Below are positions 6,273-40,985 of a stretch of DNA of 40,985 nucleotides, piece by piece. Both the position numbers and the translations under genes were made by a program. Every line of letters starts with the position of its first letter. Positions within the stretch are counted from its first letter, which is position 1. The notes under the pieces were generated by a model. That model was not told the origin of the DNA, ran no database searches, and saw only the letters and a list, made by a program, of their open reading frames with translations. Origin of the DNA: a virus (lineage: Duplodnaviria > Heunggongvirae > Uroviricota > Caudoviricetes); IMG/VR virus record IMGVR_UViG_2563366942_000017, positions 1 to 40,985 of that record, one strand, 5' to 3'.

Positions 6273-6288
6273 CTGTGAATATGAACAG
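6273..6288. promoter_or_regulatory. LexA (SOS) box 1, CTGT-N8-ACAG
   Basis: CTGTgaatatgaACAG matches SOS-box core CTGT-N8-ACAG with AT-rich spacer; lies in promoter region upstream of gene 6383. Confidence 0.55.
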
Positions 6289-6291
6289 ATA

Positions 6292-6306
6292 TTACCTTTC
6301 GGGTAA
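6292..6306. promoter_or_regulatory. Operator palindrome TTACC-N5-GGTAA (site A1)
   Basis: ATTACCtttcgGGTAAT, perfect 17-bp palindrome, member of recurring family. Confidence 0.6.
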
Positions 6307-6345: not shown

Positions 6346-6361
6346 CTGTATATTTATACAG
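6346..6361. promoter_or_regulatory. LexA (SOS) box 2, CTGT-N8-ACAG
   Basis: aCTGTatatttatACAGtt, near-consensus SOS box about 20 nt upstream of the SD of gene 6383. Confidence 0.65.
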
Positions 6362-6382: not shown

Positions 6383-6640
6383 ATGCAGCAGTATCACTAT
6401 CCACTGGAAGACGGATTTACCGAAAGGATTCACACGCCGGGAGGCGTCAGGTCACTGGTGGAGGGATCGCACTTGATGAAATTACTCCGGGATCTCGATA
6501 AGGATGGATTTAATGTCGATGGCCCACTTGCCGAACTGACTGCACTGATTAACTACGTCACCAGCTCACAGATGTCTATGCAGGATCTGCAAACACATCT
6601 CGACTATTGTGCCGAACAATTACGAAAGCAAACCAGATAA
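6383..6640 (+). CDS. Small antirepressor-like protein (standalone homolog of the C-terminal module of the two Ant proteins)
   Basis: SD GGAGAAG before ATG 6383; 85 aa; aligns to the last ~75 aa of ORFs 6953..7639 and 8813..9751 (shared IHxPxGV, LM.LL, DG..V.G..AELT, QTH..Y); preceded by two LexA boxes. Confidence 0.5.
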   Translation: MQQYHYPLEDGFTERIHTPGGVRSLVEGSHLMKLLRDLDKDGFNVDGPLAELTALINYVTSSQMSMQDLQTHLDYCAEQLRKQTR

Positions 6641-6671: not shown

Positions 6672-6686
6672 TTACCTTTGCGGTAA
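6672..6686. promoter_or_regulatory. Operator palindrome TTACC-N5-GGTAA (site A2)
   Basis: TTTACCtttgcGGTAAA between gene 6383 and the Bro-N antirepressor gene. Confidence 0.55.
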
Positions 6687-6780: not shown

Positions 6781-6800
6781 CCGCATAAGCGGTTTTTTTA
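6781..6800 (+). terminator. Rho-independent terminator
   Basis: CCGCataaGCGG hairpin followed by TTTTTTT. Confidence 0.5.
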
Positions 6801-6952
6801 TGTGTAAAGCGCACCTATTCTATGGTGGGCTGTGTGGGGGCACCGAAAGGTGCGCCGGGTCCTTTGTAGCCGGTTACGCCAACCCTGCACAGTTCACCAC
6901 CAACCGATTGGCGTCGGTAGTGGTGATTAACCTAACTACAAAGGTGATCACT

Positions 6953-7639
6953 ATGACTGCTAACGTAACCCCATCTGTTTTTCATTTTGAATCAGAAGCA
7001 ACCATTCGAGCCATTGTTATTGATGGAAATCCTTGGTTTGTTGCCAAAGACGTTATTAAAGCTCTTCAACTGACAAACCCCACTATGTCAATAAAATCTC
7101 TTGATGATGATGAAAGGGCTAAATTTAACTTAGGCCGTCAAGGTGAAACCAATATTATCAACGAGTCAGGCCTCTACACACTGATCCTCCGCTGCCGCGA
7201 CGCAGTGACACCAGGCACTATCCCCTACCGCTTTCGTAAATGGGTTACAGGTGAGGTTCTTCCTCAGATCCGCCGCACCGGAAGTTACATAAAAAACTCG
7301 CTCCCGCAAGAAGAACGCATAAAGATGGTTGCCGACCAGGTAGCCAACGCCACGGCGTCAGCAGTAATGCAGGCGATGAAGATAGAGAACAAAACCTACA
7401 GTGCCCCACTGAAGCCCGGCTACCGTAGCCTGATTCATTCTCCGTCTGGTGTTCTCGGCCTGACGGAAAACTCACTGCTGATGAATCTGCTGAACCAGTT
7501 ACAGGAAGACGGGCACGACGTATCGGGCGCGGCGGCGGAGCTGACCACCATGTTCTGCTACATCGTCGGTGTGAGCAAATGCCTGCGTGATATCCAGACC
7601 CACGCGGAGTACATCAACGACAAGGCAGGGTTCTTCTGA
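6953..7639 (+). CDS. Antirepressor with Bro-N-like N-terminal domain
   Basis: SD AAGGTGA before ATG 6953; N-terminal IDGNPWFVAKDV motif typical of Bro-N/Ant N-terminal domain; C-terminal 77 aa identical to that of ORF 8813..9751; upstream ORF extension is treated as 5' leader. Confidence 0.65.
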   Translation: MTANVTPSVFHFESEATIRAIVIDGNPWFVAKDVIKALQLTNPTMSIKSLDDDERAKFNLGRQGETNIINESGLYTLILRCRDAVTPGTIPYRFRKWVTGEVLPQIRRTGSYIKNSLPQEERIKMVADQVANATASAVMQAMKIENKTYSAPLKPGYRSLIHSPSGVLGLTENSLLMNLLNQLQEDGHDVSGAAAELTTMFCYIVGVSKCLRDIQTHAEYINDKAGFF

Positions 7640-7682: not shown

Positions 7683-7711
7683 TTGCAGACTGTGGGTGAA
7701 TAGCGTACTAT
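7683..7711 (+). promoter_or_regulatory. Sigma70-like promoter TTGCAG-17-TACTAT
   Basis: -35 TTGCAG, 17-nt spacer, -10 TACTAT; operator B starts at the last T of the -10. Confidence 0.45.
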
Positions 7712-7725
7712 TACCTCAAGGGTAA
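7711..7725. promoter_or_regulatory. Operator palindrome TTACC-N5-GGTAA (site B)
   Basis: TTACCtcaagGGTAA overlapping the predicted transcription start of the 7786/7940 cassette. Confidence 0.6.
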
Positions 7726-26245: not shown

Positions 26246-26260
26246 ATTACCTTTCAGGTA
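26246..26260. promoter_or_regulatory. Operator palindrome TTACC-N5-GGTAA (site C)
   Basis: ATTACCtttcaGGTAAG; a TTGACA hexamer lies 17 nt upstream on plus strand. Confidence 0.5.
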
Positions 26261-26582
26261 AGTAAAGGGTTCATTCCGGTTACTAACCTGACTGGCTTGT
26301 CGTTAAATTGAACAGGTGGAGTGAGCTTTTATTTTGAGCAGTACGGCGTATGGCACATGCGCCGATAGCGGTCTGGATACGTTTAAGGGGCACCCTCCCT
26401 TGCTCGGGCAAACGAACCAGGTAGCCGGAATGTGCAAGTCGAGCGGTTTTATTCCGCGCACGGGGATTCACCATCCCGGCGATTCGGTGTGACGCCTCGG
26501 AAGAGACGAGGGTACAACGATGAGAGCATTTATGGAGCCGCGACAAAGTGTGGCGCCTTAACAGGCTAAGTGCTCTCAGCGT

Positions 26583-28799: not shown

Positions 28800-29392
28800 T
28801 GATTGCCATCCTGACGTTCTTTCAGTCTCTTCCTGGCTGCCGCTATGCGATCAGCAATTGTCACATTCACATTAACATCCAGGCGTTCTTTGAACGCGTT
28901 GACATCAACATGCTTACCAATCAGCTCAAGGTTCTTCACCTTGTCAGGCCATTTAATTTTTTTGAGGATTGTCTCTATTGAATCCTCGTTCATGTTCATG
29001 ATGGTCGATGACAGATCAAAGCCACTAAGCGTAGTGCGCCAGATTTTCGGCCACTCACGGATTGGTTTAAGGCTCCCATCGTCGTTGAGGATGTCGATCA
29101 CGTCCATCTGGTCGATCTCCACCAGGCGCATGAGAACGTAATCAGCACTGACACGCATTCGTTTGTTGCGCTCCTCCATCAACTCGGCAATCCGTTTTTG
29201 AATGCGTTCATCGCGCATCATGACACTGGCTTTAACTGCCGCTGTATTTGGGGAGAATCCTGCGTTAATCGCTGCCTGAGTCTGGTTTTCAGGCGTTTTG
29301 ATGTATGACTGGCAATAAGCCTCCTGCATTGCTGTTAGTGGCTTAAATTGCGTTGATTTGCGTTTATAGGTTTTAGGTTCAGCAGGCATCAT
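28796..29392 (-). CDS. Terminase small subunit
   Basis: About 199 aa from internal ATG 29392 (ORF-track N-terminal extension is Thr-rich and spans operator repeats); basic helical protein upstream of large subunit. Confidence 0.6.
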   Translation of the reverse strand: MMPAEPKTYKRKSTQFKPLTAMQEAYCQSYIKTPENQTQAAINAGFSPNTAAVKASVMMRDERIQKRIAELMEERNKRMRVSADYVLMRLVEIDQMDVIDILNDDGSLKPIREWPKIWRTTLSGFDLSSTIMNMNEDSIETILKKIKWPDKVKNLELIGKHVDVNAFKERLDVNVNVTIADRIAAARKRLKERQDGNQ

Positions 29393-29409
29393 AACCACCG
29401 TGGTAATAG

Positions 29410-29424
29410 TTACCGTTGTGGTAA
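29410..29424. promoter_or_regulatory. Operator palindrome TTACC-N5-GGTAA (site H) at terS start
   Basis: TTACCgttgtGGTAA; flanked by imperfect copies TAACCaccgtGGTAA (29392-29406) and GGTAATAGTACC. Confidence 0.55.
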
Positions 29425-29435
29425 TAGTACCATGC

Positions 29436-29461
29436 AAAATAAAGCCGCCATAGTTGGCGGC
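29436..29461 (-). terminator. Rho-independent terminator upstream of terminase genes
   Basis: Minus strand GCCGCCA-acta-TGGCGGC followed by TTTATTTT. Confidence 0.55.
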
Positions 29462-29510
29462 AGTATTCAAAACCCGTCAAATTCATCATGCATAATCTAC
29501 TCGTGACATG

Positions 29511-32430: not shown

Positions 32431-32775
32431 TCAGAACTCTTCGATGTTCCAGCCACCACCTGCTTTCTTTGGCTTAACCGTTACCCCGATGATTCGGAAC
32501 GGATACTGATCTGCGGCGACTTTGGTTTTCACCCTGGCGTCGTCGGTCCAGAAACCTTTCACTTCGTGCAGTTCCATCTCGCCGGTGGCGAGCATCACAG
32601 CGAAATCTGGCGTATAGAACGTGTTGTCAGCTAACCGCAGCTTGATACCCTCGAATCGATACCAGACGATTTCTCCTGCACGTTTACGCATCTCAAGGTG
32701 CTGACAATACGCAGATTCTGTTTTGTTCATCTGGCCTGTTTTGAGTCGACCAAGAGCCTGTATCTGTTTTCTCAT
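32431..32775 (-). CDS. DUF1064-like phage protein
   Basis: 114 aa; pattern recalled from lambdoid nin-region proteins; operator D1 overlaps its SD. Confidence 0.45.
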   Translation of the reverse strand: MRKQIQALGRLKTGQMNKTESAYCQHLEMRKRAGEIVWYRFEGIKLRLADNTFYTPDFAVMLATGEMELHEVKGFWTDDARVKTKVAADQYPFRIIGVTVKPKKAGGGWNIEEF

Positions 32776-32778
32776 GAT

Positions 32779-32793
32779 TTACCCCTGAGGTAA
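32779..32793. promoter_or_regulatory. Operator palindrome TTACC-N5-GGTAA (site D1)
   Basis: TTTACCcctgaGGTAAT 4 nt upstream of the start codon of gene 32431..32775. Confidence 0.55.
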
Positions 32794-32840
32794 TTAAAAA
32801 CCACATAAGACACGAAATCAATAGATTTTAGAATATTTTA

Positions 32841-32855
32841 TTACCTCATAGGTAA
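32841..32855. promoter_or_regulatory. Operator palindrome TTACC-N5-GGTAA (site D2)
   Basis: ATTACCtcataGGTAAT; TTGATT-17-TTTAAT promoter-like hexamers lie between D2 and D1 on minus strand. Confidence 0.55.
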
Positions 32856-33693: not shown

Positions 33694-34490
33694 GCTTCAG
33701 GGCTGTTCCAGTGCGGAACGTTGTTATCAGGTAATGTTGATTGCTTCTGTCTGCTAATCTGCAGCCGCCTTGCCAGCTTCTGCTCCCACTGTGCCTGATG
33801 GTATGCCTTACCCTCAGCCATCCAGTAAATTCTGAACTCTGCAAGTTCCTGTGCCGTTGGCAGACTGTCCAGGTAGATTCCCTGCAATGAGCTTTTCCGA
33901 AGAAAGTCATCTGATGGCTGCCATTGTTCATGCATGACAAATTTGCCTAATTGCCCTGGCCCACCAGGAGGAACAAAGTTATTCATCACGGCGTTGTTTG
34001 CACCGGGGTCATGAGGCACAGAATCCCCGCTTTTTGTCCTGCTCTCCCTCTCTTGGTTAAATGACTGGTTATATGACTGGTTCTGGATCCCGTTTTTGGG
34101 ATCATTCAACATCCCGTTTTTGGGATCATTCAACATCCCGTTTTTGGGTATATTCCCGTTTTCGGTAACATTACCGTTTTCGGGTTCATTACCCCCTTCC
34201 CGGTTGCCTTTAATGTTCCCGTTTTTGGTTATATTAAGAGAGAAAACCCGCACTCTTTTCGTCGCTCCCTTTCTCTCTCCGGTATCTGAAATAAGCCCCA
34301 TTTTCATGAGCGATATAAGCCCGGCCTGCACGGTTTTTTTGTTCAGGCAAGTGTCTTTAACGAGGCGTTCTATGCTGGGGTAGCAGAGGTTATATTCATC
34401 GGCTCTGTCAGCCATCGAGAGCAGTATGAGCTTTAATGACGAGCTACCTGGATCTGTCTCCCAGGCCCAATCTGTTGCATGTCTGCTCAT
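33675..34490 (-). CDS. Replication initiator O-like protein (contains origin iterons)
   Basis: N-terminal winged-helix-like region; central residues NGNI/PKNGMLND repeats are translations of DNA iterons; immediately upstream of P-like gene. Confidence 0.6.
   Translation of the reverse strand: MSRHATDWAWETDPGSSSLKLILLSMADRADEYNLCYPSIERLVKDTCLNKKTVQAGLISLMKMGLISDTGERKGATKRVRVFSLNITKNGNIKGNREGGNEPENGNVTENGNIPKNGMLNDPKNGMLNDPKNGIQNQSYNQSFNQERESRTKSGDSVPHDPGANNAVMNNFVPPGGPGQLGKFVMHEQWQPSDDFLRKSSLQGIYLDSLPTAQELAEFRIYWMAEGKAYHQAQWEQKLARRLQISRQKQSTLPDNNVPHWNSPEAWEDFL
34087..34235. repeat. Iteron array (putative replication origin) inside O-like gene
   Basis: Six direct repeats of consensus (A/C)CCGTTTT(T/C)GG: two 24-bp units ATCCCGTTTTTGGGATCATTCAAC, then four shorter units. 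Confidence 0.65.
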
Positions 34491-34505
34491 GATTAATCTC
34501 CGCTA

Positions 34506-34706
34506 TCAGCTTGAATGTTGTGGGGAGGAATTAATCATGATCTGCTTAATCTCTGCCCTGATACGACGGTTTGATTCCATGGTGCACTCAACACAGTGTC
34601 CGTTGTAAACCCAGCGTTCACTGTCATGTCCGTGCTTACATGTTTTTCCGGTGTAGTAGCGTTTAAGTCCGCGCTTTGCGGCATCAATACGTGTAATGAT
34701 TTCCAT
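34506..34706 (-). CDS. Small Cys-rich (zinc-finger-like) protein
   Basis: Internal ATG 34706 with AGGG SD; motif CKHGHDSERWVYNGHCVEC. Confidence 0.35.
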   Translation of the reverse strand: MEIITRIDAAKRGLKRYYTGKTCKHGHDSERWVYNGHCVECTMESNRRIRAEIKQIMINSSPQHSS

Positions 34707-34786
34707 GGTAAGCCCTGTTATTAGTATTGGGATTACGGTTATTTTGTGCTGACACAAAAAAAAGATCAACCATATTTGGTTTTTTA

Positions 34787-34801
34787 TTACCTTTGAGGTA
34801 C
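34787..34801. promoter_or_regulatory. Operator-like palindrome (site E, imperfect)
   Basis: ATTACCtttgaGGTACG, one mismatch in right half. Confidence 0.4.
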
Positions 34802-34810
34802 GAATAGATA

Positions 34811-34834
34811 TGAAAAGACCGCCGGATGGCGGTC
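34811..34834 (-). terminator. Rho-independent terminator after cro-like gene
   Basis: GACCGCC-atcc-GGCGGTC hairpin with TTTTCA on minus strand. Confidence 0.5.
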
Positions 34835-34856
34835 TACAGAGGGTTGTGGCTGGATA

Positions 34857-35087
34857 TCATGAGTAGAAGAAGTATGCCAGTTCTGCTTTTGAGCGCAGCC
34901 ATTGTCTTGATTTACAGGCTTTAAAAAGCCCATCCATCAATACCTTACCTGGCATTTTGCGCTTACCTGTTAAGTGAGTCTGGATATAGTGACTCGTCGT
35001 TCCGGCTTCCTGTGCGAAGGCTTCACGCTCATCCGGAGTAAGTGCAAGCCAGTGCTTTTTGAAATCGAAATGTCCGTTATCGCTCAT
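34857..35087 (-). CDS. Cro-like HTH regulator
   Basis: 76 aa, first gene of rightward-equivalent early operon, divergent from repressor; HTH-like segment TSHYIQTHLTGKRKMPGKVL. Confidence 0.5.
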   Translation of the reverse strand: MSDNGHFDFKKHWLALTPDEREAFAQEAGTTSHYIQTHLTGKRKMPGKVLMDGLFKACKSRQWLRSKAELAYFFYS

Positions 35088-35123
35088 AGCTATTGCCTGA
35101 TATTTATTTCAGATAATAAATAT

Positions 35124-35186
35124 TCACCCATAAGGTAACAAAAATCAAGGATAGTTACCTATGGGGTGCATTTACCTGTTGGGTAA
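35124..35186. promoter_or_regulatory. OR-like switch region with three operator sites
   Basis: TCACCcataaGGTAA (35124-35138), TTACCtatggGGTGC (35155-35169), TTACCtgttgGGTAA (35172-35186) between divergent cro-like and repressor genes. Confidence 0.6.
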
Positions 35187-35241
35187 TATTGCTTTAAATT
35201 GAATCATCTACTGATTCATATATGAGGCGATTTTCCAGAAA

Positions 35242-35826
35242 ATGAAAAGTATCCAGGACGTCCGCAGGCAAAATCTCAACGACTTGATCGACCGTGAATT
35301 CAATGGTGTTCAGACGCGGATGGCTGAAAAACTTGGAACTCAGGCAAATCTGGTAAACCGCTGGGCTCTTGGCAAGAAGGTTATCGGCGACCAGGTTGCG
35401 CGAAAAATTGAAGCTGCCGCCAATAAACCCCGTAACTGGCTTGATATCGATCGCTCGCTTTCTCAGGAAGGTTTTCAGCCTGTCGGACCAAGCGACATTG
35501 GTCAACTGGCGGCTCACAACCTGGAACGCTGGATGAGCGAAAGCCGCGACCTTTCAACGCAGGGAAAACTTCACCGCGCATCCGGCGTCGCCCAGGTAAC
35601 AATCAGCCGCCTGTTAAACAATGAGGTCAGCGTTTCCATTTCCACCCTGGAGAATGTTGCATCCGCATTTGGGCGTCACGGATATGAATTACTGATTCAC
35701 CCGCACGACCCCGCGACTATCAACTATGACCGCTCGCGCTACGCATTGTTACCTGAAACAGAGAAGGCAAAGATCGAAAGTTACATTGAATTTGTCATCA
35801 ACCAGAACGAAAAAAACAAACAATAA
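35242..35826 (+). CDS. Prophage repressor candidate (two HTH regions, no peptidase S24 domain)
   Basis: N-terminal CI-type HTH (QTRMAEKLGTQANLVNRWALGKK) and a second XRE-like HTH (LHRASGVAQVTISRLLNNE); divergent from cro-like; flanked by operator clusters; no Ser-Lys autocleavage motif. Confidence 0.55.
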   Translation: MKSIQDVRRQNLNDLIDREFNGVQTRMAEKLGTQANLVNRWALGKKVIGDQVARKIEAAANKPRNWLDIDRSLSQEGFQPVGPSDIGQLAAHNLERWMSESRDLSTQGKLHRASGVAQVTISRLLNNEVSVSISTLENVASAFGRHGYELLIHPHDPATINYDRSRYALLPETEKAKIESYIEFVINQNEKNKQ

Positions 35827-35847
35827 AACCATATTTTTCAGTAAGTA

Positions 35848-35872
35848 AGCCGCCTTATGGCGGCTTTTTTAT
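35848..35872 (+). terminator. Rho-independent terminator after repressor gene
   Basis: AGCCGCC-ttat-GGCGGCT followed by TTTTTT. Confidence 0.65.
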
Positions 35873-35883
35873 TGCCTATTCGA

Positions 35884-35960
35884 TTACCTAACGGGTAATT
35901 TTTTTAACTCATATCTATTGACATCAAACCAGATACGCATAATTATTACCTCAACGGTAA
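35884..35960. promoter_or_regulatory. OL-like promoter/operator region (sites G1, G2)
   Basis: ATTACCtaacgGGTAAT (35884-35898); TTGACA at 35918-35923; ATTACCtcaacGGTAAC (35946-35960) overlapping -10/+1. Confidence 0.6.
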
Positions 35961-35979
35961 CAGACCGAGGTAACAAGTT

Positions 35980-36132
35980 ATGCAGTGGAAAATCATCAAC
36001 GGTTGGTACTGCGTTACTGCATGCGGATTCATGAGCTGGAAGTTCCGCACCTTACAGGAAGGCATTAAGTGGGCTTTCGTCAGCAAAGAAGCTCGCGATG
36101 TAGCCAACGATAACGAGATATGGGAGGGCTGA
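35980..36132 (+). CDS. Small Trp-rich protein (50 aa), first gene of early-left operon
   Basis: Not in ORF track; ATG with GAGGTAA SD; stop 2 nt before next gene start. Confidence 0.3.
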   Translation: MQWKIINGWYCVTACGFMSWKFRTLQEGIKWAFVSKEARDVANDNEIWEG

Positions 36133-36134
36133 TA

Positions 36135-36434
36135 ATGAACGTTAATCAGCAGAAAAATCTTCAAAAAATCATGCTGGCATTCGACAAGGACTACCGCCTG
36201 TCAGAACAGCTATATGACCGACAAGTTGAACTGATTGAGAGCATCCGACTTCATCAACTGTCCTCAACTTTCGACGTTGTAACAGGCAAAGGCGTTCGTC
36301 AGGAAGTACTGGAGGCTGCTAAAGACAGCCCTGAGTTCGAAGAACTGATGGATGCCTATCGGCGAGAGGCAATGGCAATTATCGCCCGCTGGGATCTGGC
36401 GGATCAGCTTGATGGACAGAGGGACGCGGCATGA
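36135..36434 (+). CDS. Hypothetical early protein
   Basis: About 100 aa, internal ATG 36135 preferred; stop overlaps exonuclease start (ATGA). Confidence 0.4.
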   Translation: MNVNQQKNLQKIMLAFDKDYRLSEQLYDRQVELIESIRLHQLSSTFDVVTGKGVRQEVLEAAKDSPEFEELMDAYRREAMAIIARWDLADQLDGQRDAA

Positions 36435-37252
36435 AACCGGGAATTTATTTCGACATCAGCAACGAAGACTACCACGCCGGTGACGGCGTGAGTAAGTCGC
36501 AACTGGACATGGTTGCCAAGAATCCGGCGCTTCTTAAATGGGTTCAGGCAGCACCAGAAGACGAAGAGAAAAAGTCTGCACTGGATATGGGAACCGCATT
36601 GCACTGTCTGCTTCTGGAGCCTGGAGAGTTCGACAAACGCTTCATTGTTTCACCGAAATTCGATCGTCGGACGAAACAAGGTAAAGCTGACGAAGAGGCA
36701 TTTCTTCGTGATGTGGCGGATATGGTGATTACGGTACTTGATGCCGAGCAGTGGCGGAAACTGGAGCTTATGCGTGATAGCGCAATGGCTCATCCGGCGG
36801 CACGCTGGATGTTGGAAGCACCTGGTTACTGCGAAGCATCAATGTACTGGAACGATGAAGAGACGGGTGAGTTGTGCCGAATTCGTCCAGACAAATGGCT
36901 GAACGAGCACAACGTGATCGTCGACGTGAAAAAGGTTGCAGATATGGACCGTTTTGCACGCCACATCGAGGAATTCCGCTACCACGTGCAGGACGCAATG
37001 TACCGCGAAGGCGCAATGAGGGTTACTGGTCAGCCGCATGGTTTTTTCTTTCTTGCCGTGAGCGAAAGCATTGATTGTGGTCGGTATCCGGTACGCGTGT
37101 TCGAGCTGGATGCGCAGGATGTCGATGCCGGGCACGCTCTGTTCCGCCGGGATCTGAATACCTATCACGAATGCCGCATCAATGATGAATGGGGCGGTGT
37201 GGAAATCATTAAACGCCCTGAGTGGGCACGCAAACAGGATATGTACATATGA
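36431..37252 (+). CDS. PD-(D/E)XK-family exonuclease (RecE/YqaJ-like recombination exonuclease)
   Basis: 273 aa; conserved D...E.K-type nuclease signature region (IRPDKW...VDVKK); directly upstream of RecT with ATGA overlap. Confidence 0.55.
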   Translation: MKPGIYFDISNEDYHAGDGVSKSQLDMVAKNPALLKWVQAAPEDEEKKSALDMGTALHCLLLEPGEFDKRFIVSPKFDRRTKQGKADEEAFLRDVADMVITVLDAEQWRKLELMRDSAMAHPAARWMLEAPGYCEASMYWNDEETGELCRIRPDKWLNEHNVIVDVKKVADMDRFARHIEEFRYHVQDAMYREGAMRVTGQPHGFFFLAVSESIDCGRYPVRVFELDAQDVDAGHALFRRDLNTYHECRINDEWGGVEIIKRPEWARKQDMYI

Positions 37253-38190
37253 GCAACGACATCGCAAACATCAACGCACCAGTAGACACAGCAATCGCTG
37301 GAACTGCTGCAACTATTTTCAGCCCAGACGGCTTGAACCAACTGATGAAATTCGCCGAGGTAATGGCGCAAAGCCGCGTAACGGTACCGGCGCACCTCGC
37401 CGGGAAACCAGCTGATTGCATGGCCGTGGCAATGCAGGCTGCGCAGTGGGGAATGAACCCGTTTGCCGTGGCTCAGAAAACCCATGTTGTGAACGGCACG
37501 CTAGGTTATGAAGCCCAATTAGTAAACGCAGTTATCTCAACGATGTCGCCAACAAAAGATCGCATCAACTACGAGTGGTTCGGGCCGTGGGAACGCGTGA
37601 TCGGTAAGTTTGTTGAGAAAACATCCAAAAACGGCAATCCATATATCGCACCAGGCTGGACTCTAAAAGACGAAGAAGGCTGCGGTGTTCGCGTATGGGC
37701 AACCATGAAGGGCGAGGATCAACCTCGAGTGCTTGAGTTAATGCTGTCTCAAGCACAGGTAAGAAACTCCACACTTTGGGCCAGTGATCCGAAACAACAA
37801 CTCGCATACCTTGCGACAAAACGCTGGTCTCGCCTGCACTGTCCTGACGTAATCATGGGCGTCTACACCCCAGACGAATTACAGGAAACGGCACCGCGCG
37901 TTGAGCGAGACATTACTCCGCAAACGACCACTGCTGCGGGAATGAACAGTCTGATCAACGCTAAACCAGCGAAAAAGCCTGATGAGCAAACGCGTAAATC
38001 GGATAGCCGTGATCCAGAAGAAATGCTGATGGCCTTTACCAGCGCAGCGATGAATTACAGCACTGTCTCCGAACTGGATAAGGCTTACAAATACATTGCA
38101 CAAAAACTTTCAGATGATGACGAACTGCTGGCAAAAGCCACCGACGTTTACAGCGTTCGTCGGGAAGAATTAAACGAAACATCTATGTAA
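37249..38190 (+). CDS. recT: RecT-family single-strand annealing recombinase
   Basis: Motif-level resemblance to RecT (AQLVNAVI...WTLKDEEGCGVRVWA...); paired with exonuclease as in Rac recET. Confidence 0.65.
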   Translation: MSNDIANINAPVDTAIAGTAATIFSPDGLNQLMKFAEVMAQSRVTVPAHLAGKPADCMAVAMQAAQWGMNPFAVAQKTHVVNGTLGYEAQLVNAVISTMSPTKDRINYEWFGPWERVIGKFVEKTSKNGNPYIAPGWTLKDEEGCGVRVWATMKGEDQPRVLELMLSQAQVRNSTLWASDPKQQLAYLATKRWSRLHCPDVIMGVYTPDELQETAPRVERDITPQTTTAAGMNSLINAKPAKKPDEQTRKSDSRDPEEMLMAFTSAAMNYSTVSELDKAYKYIAQKLSDDDELLAKATDVYSVRREELNETSM

Positions 38191-38239: not shown

Positions 38240-38488
38240 ATGAAAGGTGCATTAGGTAAGAAGGAACTCCTGGCGGTGGTGCCACTGTCATGGAGCACTA
38301 TCGACCGTATGGAGCGCGCAGGGGAATTTCCTAAACGCTGGTATATCACTGACAAACGCTGCGCATGGAACCGTGACGAAGTTGAGCGTTGGCTTGATGA
38401 ACGTCAGGCAGCAAGCCCGGCAGAGTTCCAGGGTAAAAAGCCTCCTGTTCAGCAACGTGTATATCGTCCTGTGAGCAACGCTGCATGA
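38240..38488 (+). CDS. AlpA-family excisionase/transcriptional regulator
   Basis: 82 aa; LSWSTIDRMERAGEFPKRWYITDKRCAWNRDEVERWL matches AlpA/Xis HTH pattern. Confidence 0.55.
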   Translation: MKGALGKKELLAVVPLSWSTIDRMERAGEFPKRWYITDKRCAWNRDEVERWLDERQAASPAEFQGKKPPVQQRVYRPVSNAA

Positions 38489-38597
38489 GTGCGCTGCTAA
38501 GGCACTGGAGCAAATGGTCAGGATGGTACTTATTCCTGGCCTCTGTTTCAGCATGGCTTTATCTGCTGGCATTAATTTTCAGAGAGGGTTGGATTAA

Positions 38598-38897
38598 GTG
38601 AGAAAGTTAAGCCGACTTGAAAAATATCACATGAACAAGGTTTCAATGCGCAGCCCTTCAAAGATTGTCGCCGTTACTCCTGCGGCGATAGAGATCGAAA
38701 AACGCGCGATTGAAAGAGAGAAAAAAGGGCAATTCCGCATTGCCGCTCACCTTTGGCTTCAGTGTATGGATGTTGCTTCTGGTGATGTTGAACGTGCAAG
38801 GATCGCGGTTCGCAGGGACCAATGTATCACAAAAGGTAACGGCCTTCGCCGTGGCGACTATAGCGGCATAGGATGTTGTGGGGTGGTTTATGACTAA
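38598..38897 (+). CDS. Hypothetical protein
   Basis: ORF-track start is GTG; alternative ATG at 38631; overlaps methylase start. Confidence 0.3.
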   Translation: MRKLSRLEKYHMNKVSMRSPSKIVAVTPAAIEIEKRAIEREKKGQFRIAAHLWLQCMDVASGDVERARIAVRRDQCITKGNGLRRGDYSGIGCCGVVYD

Positions 38898-39734: not shown

Positions 39735-40985
39735 TTATTCCCCCGCCATCCACTTCTCAAACTTCGACGGGGAGAACGGAATCAGATCCGTATGCTCCCC
39801 GTCAATCCATGAATCAATCATATCGGCCCACTGCTGCAACATGTAGGCGCGCTGTCTGGCGTATTCCGCTTTGTTATATACGGCGCGCACACCTTTCTGC
39901 TCATGTGCCAGAGCCTTTTCAATCCAGTCTGAAGGATAACCAGCCTCATGCAACAACGTACTGGCTGTACGGCGCATATCATGTACAGTGAAGTCCTGAA
40001 TATGCTCACCATCTTCATTTATTATTTTCACCGTTCTGTCGATCAGAGAGTTCAGCGCGGCATTAGATAATGGCTTCCGGAAATTGTAACGACCAGGAAC
40101 CAGATATTCACTTCCACCAGCGCACATCTGCAACCCGACCAATATATCCTGTGCCTGTTTAGGCAGGTAAATAACGTGCGCCCGGCTTCCCTTCATGCGG
40201 TCTGGAGGAATTGTCCATGTCCATTTTTTAAAATCTATTTCATCCCACGTTGCATTGGTGAATTCGCCCTTACGAACCATAGTGATAAGCACCAGTTTTA
40301 AAGCCATTTTCATAGTGCCCATAGCACCAATGGCATCCAGCGTGCGGAAGAACAGGCCAATTTCTTCTGGTGTCAGTGTTCGCTCTCGTGGTTTAAATAT
40401 GGCGATAGACGAAGGTTTAATGTCAGCCGCAGGATTAAACAAACCATGACCACGGTCATTGGCGTGACGGTATACGCTACTGATGATCTCCCTGGCCTGC
40501 ACTGCTGTTGCCCGGCCACCGCGTTCGACAATCCGGTCACACAAATCACGAACCATCGATGTGGTAATTTCAGCCATCATTTTATTGCCAAGAACCGGAA
40601 GTATGTCACGGTCGATCACCGCCTGTTTCATTGCGCGGGTACTGTCAGCCAGGATGACGTGTTTCATATAACTGTCGGTATGTACCGCAAACGTCTCGGC
40701 ACCACGAATCTTTTTGATACCGTCACGTTTAGCCGCAGCCGGTGACTGGCCTGCTTTAAGCAGCTTCTTTGCAGCAATCAGTTCTTCTCGCGCTTCTGCC
40801 AGGCTGATACCGTCACGCCCATACTGCCCGATTACCAGTGTTTCGCGGCGACCGTTGATACGGTAGTCATAGCGAAACGAGACCGTGCCTGACGTAAGCA
40901 CAGCTACATACAGCCCGTCACGATCGGAGACTTTGTATAGTTTGTCCTGCGGCTTGAGGTTTTTTAATTTTGTATCGGTAAGCAC
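39735..40985 (-). CDS. int: Tyrosine integrase, P4-like; 5' end at window edge
   Basis: N-terminal LTDTKLKNLKP arm-binding motif, C-terminal catalytic R...HDMRRT...Y region; ORF begins with GTG at the last window bases so true start may lie just outside. Confidence 0.85.
   Translation of the reverse strand: MLTDTKLKNLKPQDKLYKVSDRDGLYVAVLTSGTVSFRYDYRINGRRETLVIGQYGRDGISLAEAREELIAAKKLLKAGQSPAAAKRDGIKKIRGAETFAVHTDSYMKHVILADSTRAMKQAVIDRDILPVLGNKMMAEITTSMVRDLCDRIVERGGRATAVQAREIISSVYRHANDRGHGLFNPAADIKPSSIAIFKPRERTLTPEEIGLFFRTLDAIGAMGTMKMALKLVLITMVRKGEFTNATWDEIDFKKWTWTIPPDRMKGSRAHVIYLPKQAQDILVGLQMCAGGSEYLVPGRYNFRKPLSNAALNSLIDRTVKIINEDGEHIQDFTVHDMRRTASTLLHEAGYPSDWIEKALAHEQKGVRAVYNKAEYARQRAYMLQQWADMIDSWIDGEHTDLIPFSPSKFEKWMAGE

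Follow-up and report, generated by a model that had tools for sequence, protein, structure and literature searches.

Putative operators of a Rep/antirepressor-type immunity system in a phiV10-like E. coli prophage

The palindromes surrounding the repressor gene of this prophage are best explained, with a probability of roughly 85%, as operators of a Rep/Ant immunity system of the kind found in phages ε15 and SPC32H. The whole stretch of DNA analyzed, referred to here as the window, comprises 40,985 nucleotides (IMG/VR record IMGVR_UViG_2563366942_000017). Judged from its sequence, it is a phiV10-like (ε15-like, genus Uetakevirus) temperate podovirus and holds the immunity region of an E. coli prophage; phiV10 is a near match, with 99.4% identity across this region.

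The Rep/antirepressor system itself has already been described, and the resemblance to phage lambda is therefore limited to the local layout. The module is ordinary and widespread, being present in 539 of 5,426 complete E. coli genomes (~10%), O157:H7 strains included. The repressor is labeled in those genomes as "helix-turn-helix domain-containing protein" and nothing more.

Repressor gene and flanking operator regions

The features of the immunity locus are listed below by position in the window.

34857..35087, minus strand: divergent 76-aa gene, homologue of phiV10 p41 and ε15 gp39, putative Cro-like HTH protein; first gene of the replication-side operon
35113..35148, minus strand: candidate PR for the cro-like gene, two readings (promoter scores 8.2 and 11.2)
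35124..35138, no strand: OR-a, TCACCCATAAGGTAA, 1 mismatch; in the spacer/-35 of candidate PR, conserved across lineages
35155..35169, no strand: OR-b, TTACCTATGGGGTGC, 2 mismatches; centre 31 bp from OR-a
35171..35200, plus strand: candidate rep promoter, low confidence; -35 TTTACC overlapping OR-c, -10 TTAAAT/TAAATT at 35194-35200
35172..35186, no strand: OR-c, TTACCTGTTGGGTAA, perfect; centre 17 bp from OR-b, nearest rep
35242..35826, plus strand: rep, immunity repressor of 194 aa, SPC32H Rep family (ORF and homology)
35847..35873, plus strand: intrinsic terminator of rep (stem 35847-35866, then a T run); annotated in phiV10
35884..35898, no strand: OL-distal, perfect operator; centre at about -62 relative to the predicted start of PL
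35918..35946, plus strand: predicted PL promoter, TTGACA 35918-35923, 17-nt spacer, AATTAT 35941-35946
35946..35960, no strand: OL-proximal, perfect operator; centred on the predicted +1
35980..38190, plus strand: first PL-operon genes, with ORFs 35980-36132 and 36135-36434, PD-(D/E)XK exonuclease 36431-37252, and RecT 37222-38190

The product of the gene at 35242, which a sequence-only reading of the same DNA had taken for the immunity repressor, shows 100% identity with phiV10 p40 and ZX5 ORF21. The identification holds, as phage ZX5 uses the identical protein as its lysogeny repressor; overexpression of ORF21 there abolished free phage and lowered the transcripts of both holin and endolysin by over 99.9% (PMC9782041). 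In phmmer searches against PDB, Rep matched the crystallized SPC32H Rep (5D50_A, E 4e-42, residues 1-190 aligned to 2-197) and the Rep C-terminal fragment (5D4Z, E 4e-20), and its C-terminal half aligned to SPC32H Rep residues 92-198. The Pfam scan of Rep returned HTH_3 at residues 106-147 and a weak YdaS-like match at 21-61; only HTH-type families were found, and Peptidase_S24 was absent. The earlier description of a two-HTH repressor is correct as regards the number of HTH-type matches, but the second one (106-147) falls within what is described as the middle dimerisation domain of Rep, DNA binding being assigned to the N-terminal domain. The Rep domains serve DNA binding (N-terminal), dimerisation (middle), and tetramerisation and Ant binding (C-terminal) (PMC9986798). 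The residues NLVNRW (36-41), likely the recognition helix judging from the alignment, were invariant across five homologues with overall identity down to 42%.

Three sites had been proposed between the repressor and the cro-like gene, two of them imperfect and one perfect, and all were located there. All three were in register in six phage lineages with repressors 42-100% identical, the set used for the alignments of OR, OL, and the post-replication promoter, which supports both imperfect sites. From one sequence alone, the imperfect sites would be open to doubt. In OR-b, TTACC and GGT were invariant in the lineage alignment, and in ε15 and SPC32H the palindrome at this site is perfect. The exact OR core was found in 86 of the 211 fetched loci. 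The site over PR was imperfect in six of six lineages, the perfect palindrome being rep-proximal. This placement, with the best OR palindrome over the rep promoter and an imperfect site at PR, is awkward for a simple occupancy model.

Candidate PR can be read in two ways. One reading combines -35 TTGATT (35148-35143), which belongs to a lineage-invariant block, with -10 AATATT (35124-35119). The other, TTGTTA (35141-35136) with TATTAT (35118-35113), gives the highest score in the window but lacks conservation in ε15-type phages, leaving the invariant TTGATT as the conserved alternative. The block AAAAATCAA at candidate PR was invariant in six lineages. For rep, the consensus scan found no promoter. 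The candidate listed above reached a PWM score of 8.9 (~90th percentile of random windows), and of the 86 loci with the OR core, 82 have TTNAATT 7 nt beyond OR-c. The hexamers TTGAAT (35199) and TAATAT (35184) were rejected as alternatives for lack of a partner hexamer or of conservation. In the ε15 record, the three OR sites are not annotated, and a predicted IHF site is placed in the stretch of the candidate rep promoter instead.

The 76-aa protein encoded divergently from rep matched phrog_35 "transcriptional repressor" with E 8.7e-13 and gave zero sequence matches in Pfam, NCBIfam, and PDB. Its single-sequence AlphaFold model (pLDDT 82) has five helices, with YdaS-N, C-proteins, and the 434 repressor as best folds (TM about 0.55-0.6 but E >= 1). 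The phrog_35 match and the HTH fold matches point to a Cro function, and because the latter are weak, "Cro-like" is used here as a putative designation.

On the other side of rep, a terminator followed by a TTGACA promoter with perfect sites at 35884 and 35946 had been reported, and every element was found in place. The terminator is kept in Tyrion and BUCT554, and its T run is missing in ε15 and SPC32H. Predicted PL has 10 of 12 consensus matches and a PWM score of 11.9 (~99th percentile), and its -35 and -10 were invariant with zero indels in six lineages. The OL pair is spaced 62 bp apart and brackets PL. The two sites had been said to flank the promoter; OL-proximal does more than that, as it begins on the final base of the -10 hexamer and covers the predicted start site. 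The arrangement as a whole, with the repressor gene between a tripartite operator shared with a divergent HTH gene and an operator-controlled exo/RecT promoter, is conserved.

Operators across the genome and the antirepressor locus

The perfect palindrome TTACC-N5-GGTAA occurs 10 times in the window against 0.00 expected from 100 dinucleotide shuffles, and with two or fewer mismatches 39 times against 11.9 +/- 3.7. All 10 perfect sites are intergenic (0 expected), and most overlap predicted -10/+1 positions. Beyond OR and OL, perfect sites start at 6292, 6672, 7711, 26247, 29410, 32779, and 32841. Approximately eight intergenic control regions carry operators, among them those of the terminase and head genes, the antirepressors, and the promoter after the replication genes, and their positions correspond in phiV10, ε15, Tyrion, and SPC32H. 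The promoter positions, and the operator assigned to each promoter, are predictions; at PL, 32793, 6672, and 7711 the operators sit on the -10/+1 of predicted promoters. The one-mismatch sites at 2942 and 6060 lie inside genes and were treated as probable chance matches, of which about 0.5-0.7 per genome are expected. The features outside the immunity locus are as follows.

6292..6306, no strand: perfect operator, shared with SPC32H and ε15, in the control region of the divergent tail-fibre and ant genes
6346..6361, no strand: predicted LexA box CTGTATATTTATACAG, directly upstream of ant, 22 nt before its ATG
6383..6640, plus strand: ant, 85-aa antirepressor of SPC32H type (5D50_E "Anti-repressor protein", E 4.1e-47)
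6672..6686, no strand: perfect operator adjoining a -10; predicted promoter TTGCAA 6644 / TATATT 6667, strong
6800-7639: second antirepressor gene, Bro-N type with a C-terminal Ant-like domain, served by the predicted 6644/6667 promoter
7711..7725, no strand: perfect operator abutting a predicted -10 (TACTAT 7706-7711), from pattern and promoter scan
26247..26261, no strand: perfect operator upstream of the head/portal operon; counterparts at phiV10 3252, ε15 2932, and Tyrion 3969
29392..29424, no strand: operator pair 18 bp apart directly upstream of the small terminase gene; 29410 perfect, 29392 with 1 mismatch
32779..32855, minus strand: second operator-bracketed promoter, downstream of the replication genes, predicted to drive the DUF1064 gene and beyond
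34787..34801, no strand: 1-mismatch operator immediately past the cro-like gene's terminator (34835-34816) and ahead of the replication genes p42/DnaT/P

The terminase-gene pair is also present in phiV10, ε15, and Tyrion, and the position of the 34787-34801 operator is conserved in phiV10 and Tyrion. The half-sites themselves are not new. The operator sequence had been presented as different from that of lambda, and the ε15 GenBank record already annotates seven ATTACC-N5-GGTAAT protein_bind features as "repressor/lysogeny", with the same half-sites as in the window. The ε15 counterparts of the 6292 and 26247 (ε15 2932) operators are among the sites annotated as repressor sites.

The post-replication promoter repeats the OL arrangement, with a distal operator at 32841-32855 and a proximal one at 32779-32793, 62 bp apart, and predicted hexamers TTGATT (-35, 32821-32816) and TTTAAT (-10, 32798-32793). 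In the proximal operator, the right half (GAGGTAA) doubles as a ribosome-binding site. The architecture of OR, OL, and the post-replication promoter was the same in six lineages, with zero indels. Among 106 pairs of perfect sites 47-77 bp apart in IMG/VR contigs, 73 were spaced exactly 62 bp and 12 at 63 bp, counts that are not independent events because many of the contigs are close relatives. At both PL and the post-replication promoter, the two sites share a helix face, with one centred on +1 and its partner near -62. This conserved spacing of 62 bp is only a mildly new detail; no description of operator layout or promoter clamping for the Rep family was found in the literature searched, to which the primary ε15 and SPC32H papers did not belong.

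In alignment, the LexA box before ant coincided with its counterparts in SPC32H and ε15; the window contains an additional LexA-like box as well. Induction via the LexA-controlled antirepressor is expected on these grounds.

Related systems and alternative readings

The genome and repressor of ε15 were reportedly described by Kropinski et al. in 2007 (Virology 369:234). ε15 (repressor gp38; GenBank AY150271.2) belongs to the same genus and has the same gene order and operator half-sites as the window, with annotated sites in matching places before terS, before the head genes, at ant/tailspike, at OL, and after the replication genes. Shared as well are the OL and post-replication pairs, each with 62-bp spacing, and the three-site OR; the second member of the post-replication pair lacks annotation in the ε15 record. 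ε15 differs by a third OL site 76 bp downstream, two perfect OR sites, and AT-rich operator spacers (GC 0.15, compared to 0.38 in the window). Its repressor is 42% identical to the window Rep overall and 54% in the N-terminal domain. Common half-sites and a common recognition helix despite 42% identity suggest possible cross-immunity between ε15-like and phiV10-like repressors, or else specificity residing in the AT- versus GC-rich spacer.

Rep-Ant-LexA antirepression in SPC32H is said to have been reported by Kim and Ryu (2013, J Virol) and Kim et al. (2016, PNAS). SPC32H has a full-length Rep homologue (42% identical to the window Rep), a close homologue of the highly conserved Ant, a LexA box and Rep operator before ant, and the same operator family. 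In comparison to SPC32H, the window has a second, Bro-N-type antirepressor under its own Rep operator and the extra LexA-like box. According to a citing paper (PMC9638917), SPC32H Rep is a tetramer on DNA, in which each pair of DNA-binding domains is made up across dimers, and tetrameric Ant breaks it into dimers. Rep of SPC32H is reported to escape cleavage during SOS, induction depending on Ant. By homology, the window Rep would likewise not be cleaved, would bind as a tetramer, and would be disassembled by tetrameric Ant.

The C-terminal domain of SPC32H Rep resembles the loop-forming TetDloop of pLS20 Rco, and the mechanism of repression by Rep has been described as not well characterised (PMC9986798). 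Rco too combines an N-terminal HTH with a C-terminal tetramerisation domain of the SPC32H Rep fold; it has an antirepressor partner, its two operator regions are separated by a few helical turns, and it forms DNA loops between sites some 75 bp apart (PMC9986798). However, pLS20 is an unrelated Gram-positive conjugative plasmid with different operators, and of the two proteins looping has been demonstrated for Rco alone.

Direct control by one repressor through many genomic sites is likewise known from P1 C1 and mycobacteriophage L5 gp71. The operators of P1 C1 and L5 are asymmetric, and many L5 "stoperators" are located within transcription units, where they stop elongation depending on their orientation. 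In contrast to these stoperators, the window sites are symmetric, and the perfect ones are intergenic and located at promoters.

The parallel with lambda drawn in the sequence-only reading is sound for the local layout: a repressor gene between two operator regions, palindromic operators, a tripartite OR that the repressor shares with a small, divergently transcribed HTH gene, and a strong promoter for recombination genes. It fails for repressor type, induction route, site spacing, and operator confinement. A true lambda-type switch, with a CI analogue binding as cooperative dimers, activating itself from the middle OR site and cleaving itself upon RecA stimulation, and with Cro using the sites in the opposite order, is very unlikely, even with the order of cro-like gene, three-site OR, repressor, terminator, PL with operators, and recombination genes, and with OR-b at approximately -44 from the candidate rep start, near the -42 of lambda OR2. 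The window Rep is a full-length homologue of SPC32H Rep without an S24/LexA-like autocleavage domain, and an Ant gene is present behind a LexA box, in line with induction by an antirepressor instead. Lambda operators are adjacent and 23-24 bp apart, compared to 31 and 17 bp in OR and 62 bp in OL of the window. The perfect site lies on the candidate -35 of rep and not on PR, and the strongest OR site, as predicted from its match to the consensus, is thus nearest rep and not nearest cro. At least eight further operator loci are found elsewhere in the genome, late-gene promoters included, unlike the confinement to OR and OL in lambda, whose late genes are reached through the N/Q antitermination cascade.

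The palindromes could instead be mainly the targets of another regulator, either the 76-aa cro-like protein, itself a predicted HTH protein, or the AlpA- or PerC-like proteins of the PL operon, with Rep acting elsewhere or on a subset. In lambda-type switches Cro does use the operators of the repressor too, and operators used by the cro-like protein as well would fit the Rep/Ant explanation. The reading is nevertheless improbable, as the ε15 record labels the sites as repressor sites, half-sites and putative recognition helix stay constant across lineages in spite of divergence elsewhere in Rep, and the sites occupy the -10/+1 of predicted promoters as those of a repressor would. Short palindromes can also become over-represented for several reasons, and a few one-mismatch sites do lie within genes (2942 and 6060), but a non-regulatory repeat (recombination, packaging, or restriction motif) or compositional chance, with the repressor placed there by coincidence, is the least credible reading of all. 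It is effectively refuted by the conservation analysis: the perfect sites are exclusively intergenic and in fixed register to -35 and -10, and their positions are conserved though the intervening sequence has diverged.

Proposed mechanism and implications

In the Rep/Ant explanation, Rep, a tetramer by homology, would bind 15-17-bp palindromes of the form (A)TTACC-N5-GGTAA(T) via its N-terminal HTH. At PL, with one operator on the -10 and start site and the second exactly 62 bp upstream on the same helix face, bound Rep would occlude RNA polymerase and keep the exo/RecT/regulator operon off. The OR site in the PR spacer would block the cro-like gene and the replication genes, and the two rep-proximal OR sites, which overlap the only conserved candidate rep promoter, would allow negative autoregulation. 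Rep would also gate the post-replication promoter, the head and terminase operons, and the two antirepressor genes. With an operator at all these units, one protein would therefore keep nearly every transcription unit shut directly.

RecA-stimulated self-cleavage would not be the route of induction. Upon DNA damage, LexA would leave the box before ant, and Ant would bind the C-terminal domains of Rep and convert the tetramer into dimers that bind weakly, so that all operators would be vacated together. The repressor function of the identical protein in this scheme comes from the literature (PMC9782041), as do tetramer binding and Ant action (PMC9638917). Cooperative or looped binding may occur at the 62-bp pairs. 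Tentatively, and at clearly less than even odds, one Rep tetramer, with its two DNA-binding pairs formed across dimers, may clamp each promoter bracketed at 62 bp in a micro-loop of ~47 bp; Ant would then free both sites together and weaken binding elsewhere, and the second antirepressor would add positive feedback committing the phage to lytic growth.

The practical value of these results lies in the annotation of the module, and current understanding is not overturned. Approximately fifteen operator sites were identified, and these would define the regulon of the repressor. Recognized as a Rep/Ant system of SPC32H type, the module predicts SOS induction via the antirepressor and not via repressor cleavage, and the conserved 62-bp bracketing provides a testable handle on repression by the unusual "trans" Rep tetramer.

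Operators of the immunity region and their family

The immunity region carries matches to the palindrome TTACC-N5-GGTAA, the operator family, in two groups, OR and OL, on either side of the repressor gene rep.

Features of the immunity region
34857-35087, minus strand: 76-aa cro-like ORF, divergent from the 194-aa ORF
35124-35138: OR-a, one mismatch
35155-35169: OR-b, two mismatches
35172-35186: OR-c, perfect
35242-35826, plus strand: 194-aa rep ORF
35847-35866: stem of an intrinsic terminator, with T run, downstream of the 194-aa ORF
35884-35898: OL distal operator, perfect
35918-35946: predicted promoter PL, TTGACA at 35918, 17-nt spacer, AATTAT ending at 35946
35946-35960: OL proximal operator, perfect; its first base is the last base of the -10 hexamer

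The sequence-only reading had placed two imperfect sites and one perfect site between divergent ORFs, which the sequence scan confirmed, and a terminator followed by a TTGACA promoter with two perfect sites ahead of the exo/RecT operon, found as described. The OR/OL layout is genuine and conserved, and it looks functional. The PL operon codes for two small proteins, a PD-(D/E)XK exonuclease and RecT. Exonuclease (36431-37252) and RecT (37222-38190, GTG start) are separate overlapping ORFs in the window, Tyrion and BUCT554, compared to a single fused recET CDS in the phiV10 record; a frameshift, or a discrepancy in sequencing, may account for this. Also encoded in this operon (38240-38897) are an AlpA-like homologue of phiV10 p36 and a regulator resembling PerC/ANR (NCBIfam ANR_neg_reg, E 3e-5), both candidates for activating the late promoters, where good -35 elements are missing.

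Ten perfect operators, all intergenic, were found in the window against 0.00 expected from shuffles; those outside 35088-35979 lie at 6292, 6672, 7711, 26247, 29410, 32779 and 32841. The ε15 GenBank record holds seven protein_bind features labelled 'repressor / lysogeny', and the extracted sites read ATTACC-N5-GGTAAT, with half-sites identical to those of the window. Judged by sequence, the window operator is the known ε15 operator; the motif had already been annotated in ε15, and no operator annotation was present in phiV10-type phage records. In phiV10, Tyrion, ε15 and SPC32H, 14-18 sites per genome with at most one mismatch were detected versus ~0.5-0.7 expected, and their places corresponded.

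Operator places shared by the compared genomes
Before the small terminase gene: pair, 18 bp apart
Before the head genes: single
Ant/tail-fibre region: operators
Before the lysis genes: single
Before int: single
OL and OR: operators
After the terminator of the cro-like gene: single
After the replication genes: pair

The conserved int-preceding operator (TTACCyTAAAGGTAT, one mismatch, in phiV10, ε15, Tyrion and SPC32H) falls outside the window because the window stops exactly at the integrase start codon (39735-40985, minus strand); another ORF starts at base 1 (1-516). The operator after the cro-like gene's terminator (34787-34801, one mismatch), kept in phiV10 and Tyrion, has no proximal partner site and lies ~60 bp upstream of a predicted replication-gene promoter (TTGATC 34769, CAAAAT 34746). 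At the terminase gene, the annotated phiV10 terS start (41) is upstream of the operator pair (87 and 105; region 41-119), whereas terS of ε15 and Tyrion begins after the pair. This phiV10 start probably lies too far upstream, and so does that of the long ORF from 29470 in the window; within window 29386-29470, an ATG near 29386 comes after the operators.

The 5-bp spacer differs among lineages, with the central base always A or T in the window, ε15 and SPC32H, and a GC content of 0.38 for the window compared to 0.12-0.15 for ε15 and SPC32H. The half-sites and the recognition helix being identical, the spacer may carry immunity specificity.

Repressor, antirepressors and the expected induction route

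The 194-aa protein, Rep, was 100% identical to annotated repressors of phiV10, ZX5, PAS61 and others. Identity was 75-78% with the Tyrion and BUCT554 repressors (Enterobacter phages), ~45% with Klebsiella relatives, and 42% with ε15, SPN1S and SPC32H. Its whole length matched crystallised SPC32H Rep (PDB 5D50 chain A, E 4e-42) and its C-terminal two thirds the Rep(92-198) fragment (5D4Z). Pfam placed HTH_3 at 106-147 and a weak YdaS-like HTH at 21-61, and found no S24 peptidase domain. SPC32H Rep consists of an N-terminal DNA-binding, a middle dimerisation and a C-terminal tetramerisation/Ant-binding domain (PMC9986798). The supposed second HTH (HTH_3) of a two-HTH repressor is accordingly a dimerisation module and no second DNA reader. 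A citing paper describes SPC32H Rep bound to DNA as a tetramer, with paired DNA-binding domains from different dimers, and tetrameric Ant splitting it into weakly binding dimers (PMC9638917). Repressor function, as proposed from the sequence, is known for the identical ZX5 ORF21, overexpression of which abolished free phage and lowered holin and endolysin transcripts by >99.9% (PMC9782041). The N-terminal domain was best conserved (54% versus 32-34% for the middle domain), and its NLVNRW segment (residues 36-41) was invariant, consistent with constant operator half-sites despite Rep divergence to 42% identity.

The product of the small antirepressor gene ant (6383-6640) is closely homologous to SPC32H Ant (5D50 chain E, E 4e-47). 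Immediately 5' of ant stands a canonical LexA box, CTGTATATTTATACAG (6346-6361), a perfect Rep operator (6292-6306) lies in its control region, and the entire region aligns with its SPC32H and ε15 counterparts. A second LexA-box-like sequence, CTGTGAATATGAACAG (6273-6288), adjoins operator 6292 in the tail-fibre/ant divergent region and is missing from the aligned SPC32H and ε15 sequences. Induction in lambda proceeds by RecA-stimulated repressor cleavage. From the ant homologue and the aligning upstream LexA box and operator, the route expected here would instead run from DNA damage through LexA removal and Ant to Rep disassembly, and RecA-stimulated cleavage is not expected.

Another antirepressor gene, at 6800-7639, combines N-terminal regions of Bro-N/KilAC type with a C-terminal domain of PHROG 450, to which small Ant also belongs. 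The -10 of a strong predicted promoter ahead of it (TTGCAA 6644, TATATT 6667) adjoins perfect operator 6672, and such a Rep-controlled antirepressor may provide positive feedback after Rep inactivation.

The 76-aa protein matched PHROG 35 'transcriptional repressor' (E 9e-13), with zero matches in Pfam, NCBIfam and PDB by sequence. Its single-sequence AlphaFold model (five helices, pLDDT 82) resembled YdaS-N, controller proteins and 434 repressor (TM about 0.55-0.6), though E was no lower than 1; position and fold fit a putative Cro-like HTH protein.

Predicted promoters bracketed by operators

Six lineages were aligned for each control region, and promoter positions in the operator regions are predicted ones. 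All three OR sites were kept, at centre-to-centre distances of 31 and 17 bp. The invariant block AAAAATCAA gives a -35 TTGATT on the minus strand, which would place OR-a in the spacer of the predicted cro-like gene promoter; an overlapping TTGTTA/TATTAT pair outscores this reading in the window. The only conserved candidate rep promoter has its -35 TTTACC inside OR-c and, 17 nt downstream, a -10 TTwAAT present in 82 of the 86 loci having the OR core. It scored no higher than the 90th percentile of random windows, and ε15 annotators predicted an IHF site at this stretch. On this promoter reading, Rep on the rep-proximal sites would repress rep itself.

PL showed zero indels across the six lineages, though intervening bases diverge: the distal operator, 19 T-rich nt, TTGAC, a 17-nt spacer, and rATTAT fused to the proximal operator. 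The centre of the proximal operator falls on the predicted +1, that of the distal one near -62; ε15-type and Klebsiella phages have a third OL site 76 bp further downstream. The post-replication promoter (32779-32855, minus strand) repeats this design and the 62-bp distance. There GAGGTAA, the right half of the proximal operator (32779-32793), is also the Shine-Dalgarno sequence of the minus-strand DUF1064 gene, whose ATG is at 32775, and does not vary among the six lineages. A lone half-site, GAGGTAAC (35966-35973), is the ribosome-binding site of ORF 35980. Predicted -10 hexamers also adjoin operators 7711 (TACTAT) and 29410, before terS, and the rule that recurs is a T shared between the end of the -10 and the start of TTACC.

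Among 106 perfect-site pairs spaced 47-77 bp centre to centre in IMG/VR viral contigs, 73 were 62 bp apart, 12 were 63 bp and 2 were 61 bp, counts that are not independent events because many contigs are related. That two different promoters keep one distance in every lineage argues for a constraint. As 62 bp is about six helical turns, both sites lie on one face, and the DNA between them may loop. Besides the 62-bp and 17-bp classes, perfect pairs at 24 and 37 bp recurred in IMG/VR, several on contigs of 50-160 kb compared to roughly 40 kb for Uetakevirus genomes, and other phage groups may employ the same half-site with other geometry. In literature outside the primary ε15/SPC32H papers, no description was found of the conserved 62-bp bracketing, the three-site OR with its best site rep-proximal, or the Rep-controlled second antirepressor.

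Relation to lambda and distribution of the module

In lambda, 23-24-bp sites adjoin one another, the strongest lies on PR, and PRM is activated from OR2; the arrangement in the window differs in all three. The proposed lambda parallel holds for gene order only. In repressor family, inactivation mode, operator spacing and the network of operators across the genome, the locus follows the ε15/SPC32H Rep-Ant system. Since the genetics and structure of that system have already been described, and the ε15 operator motif is annotated, the locus belongs to a known system. Window positions 34400-36500 shared 99.4% identity with phiV10, an Escherichia phage of the genus Uetakevirus (ε15-like podoviruses), and other parts were mosaic, with phage TL-2011b nearest. 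Of 5426 complete E. coli genomes, 539 carried the 892-bp immunity region at ≥95% identity; it is a common prophage module.
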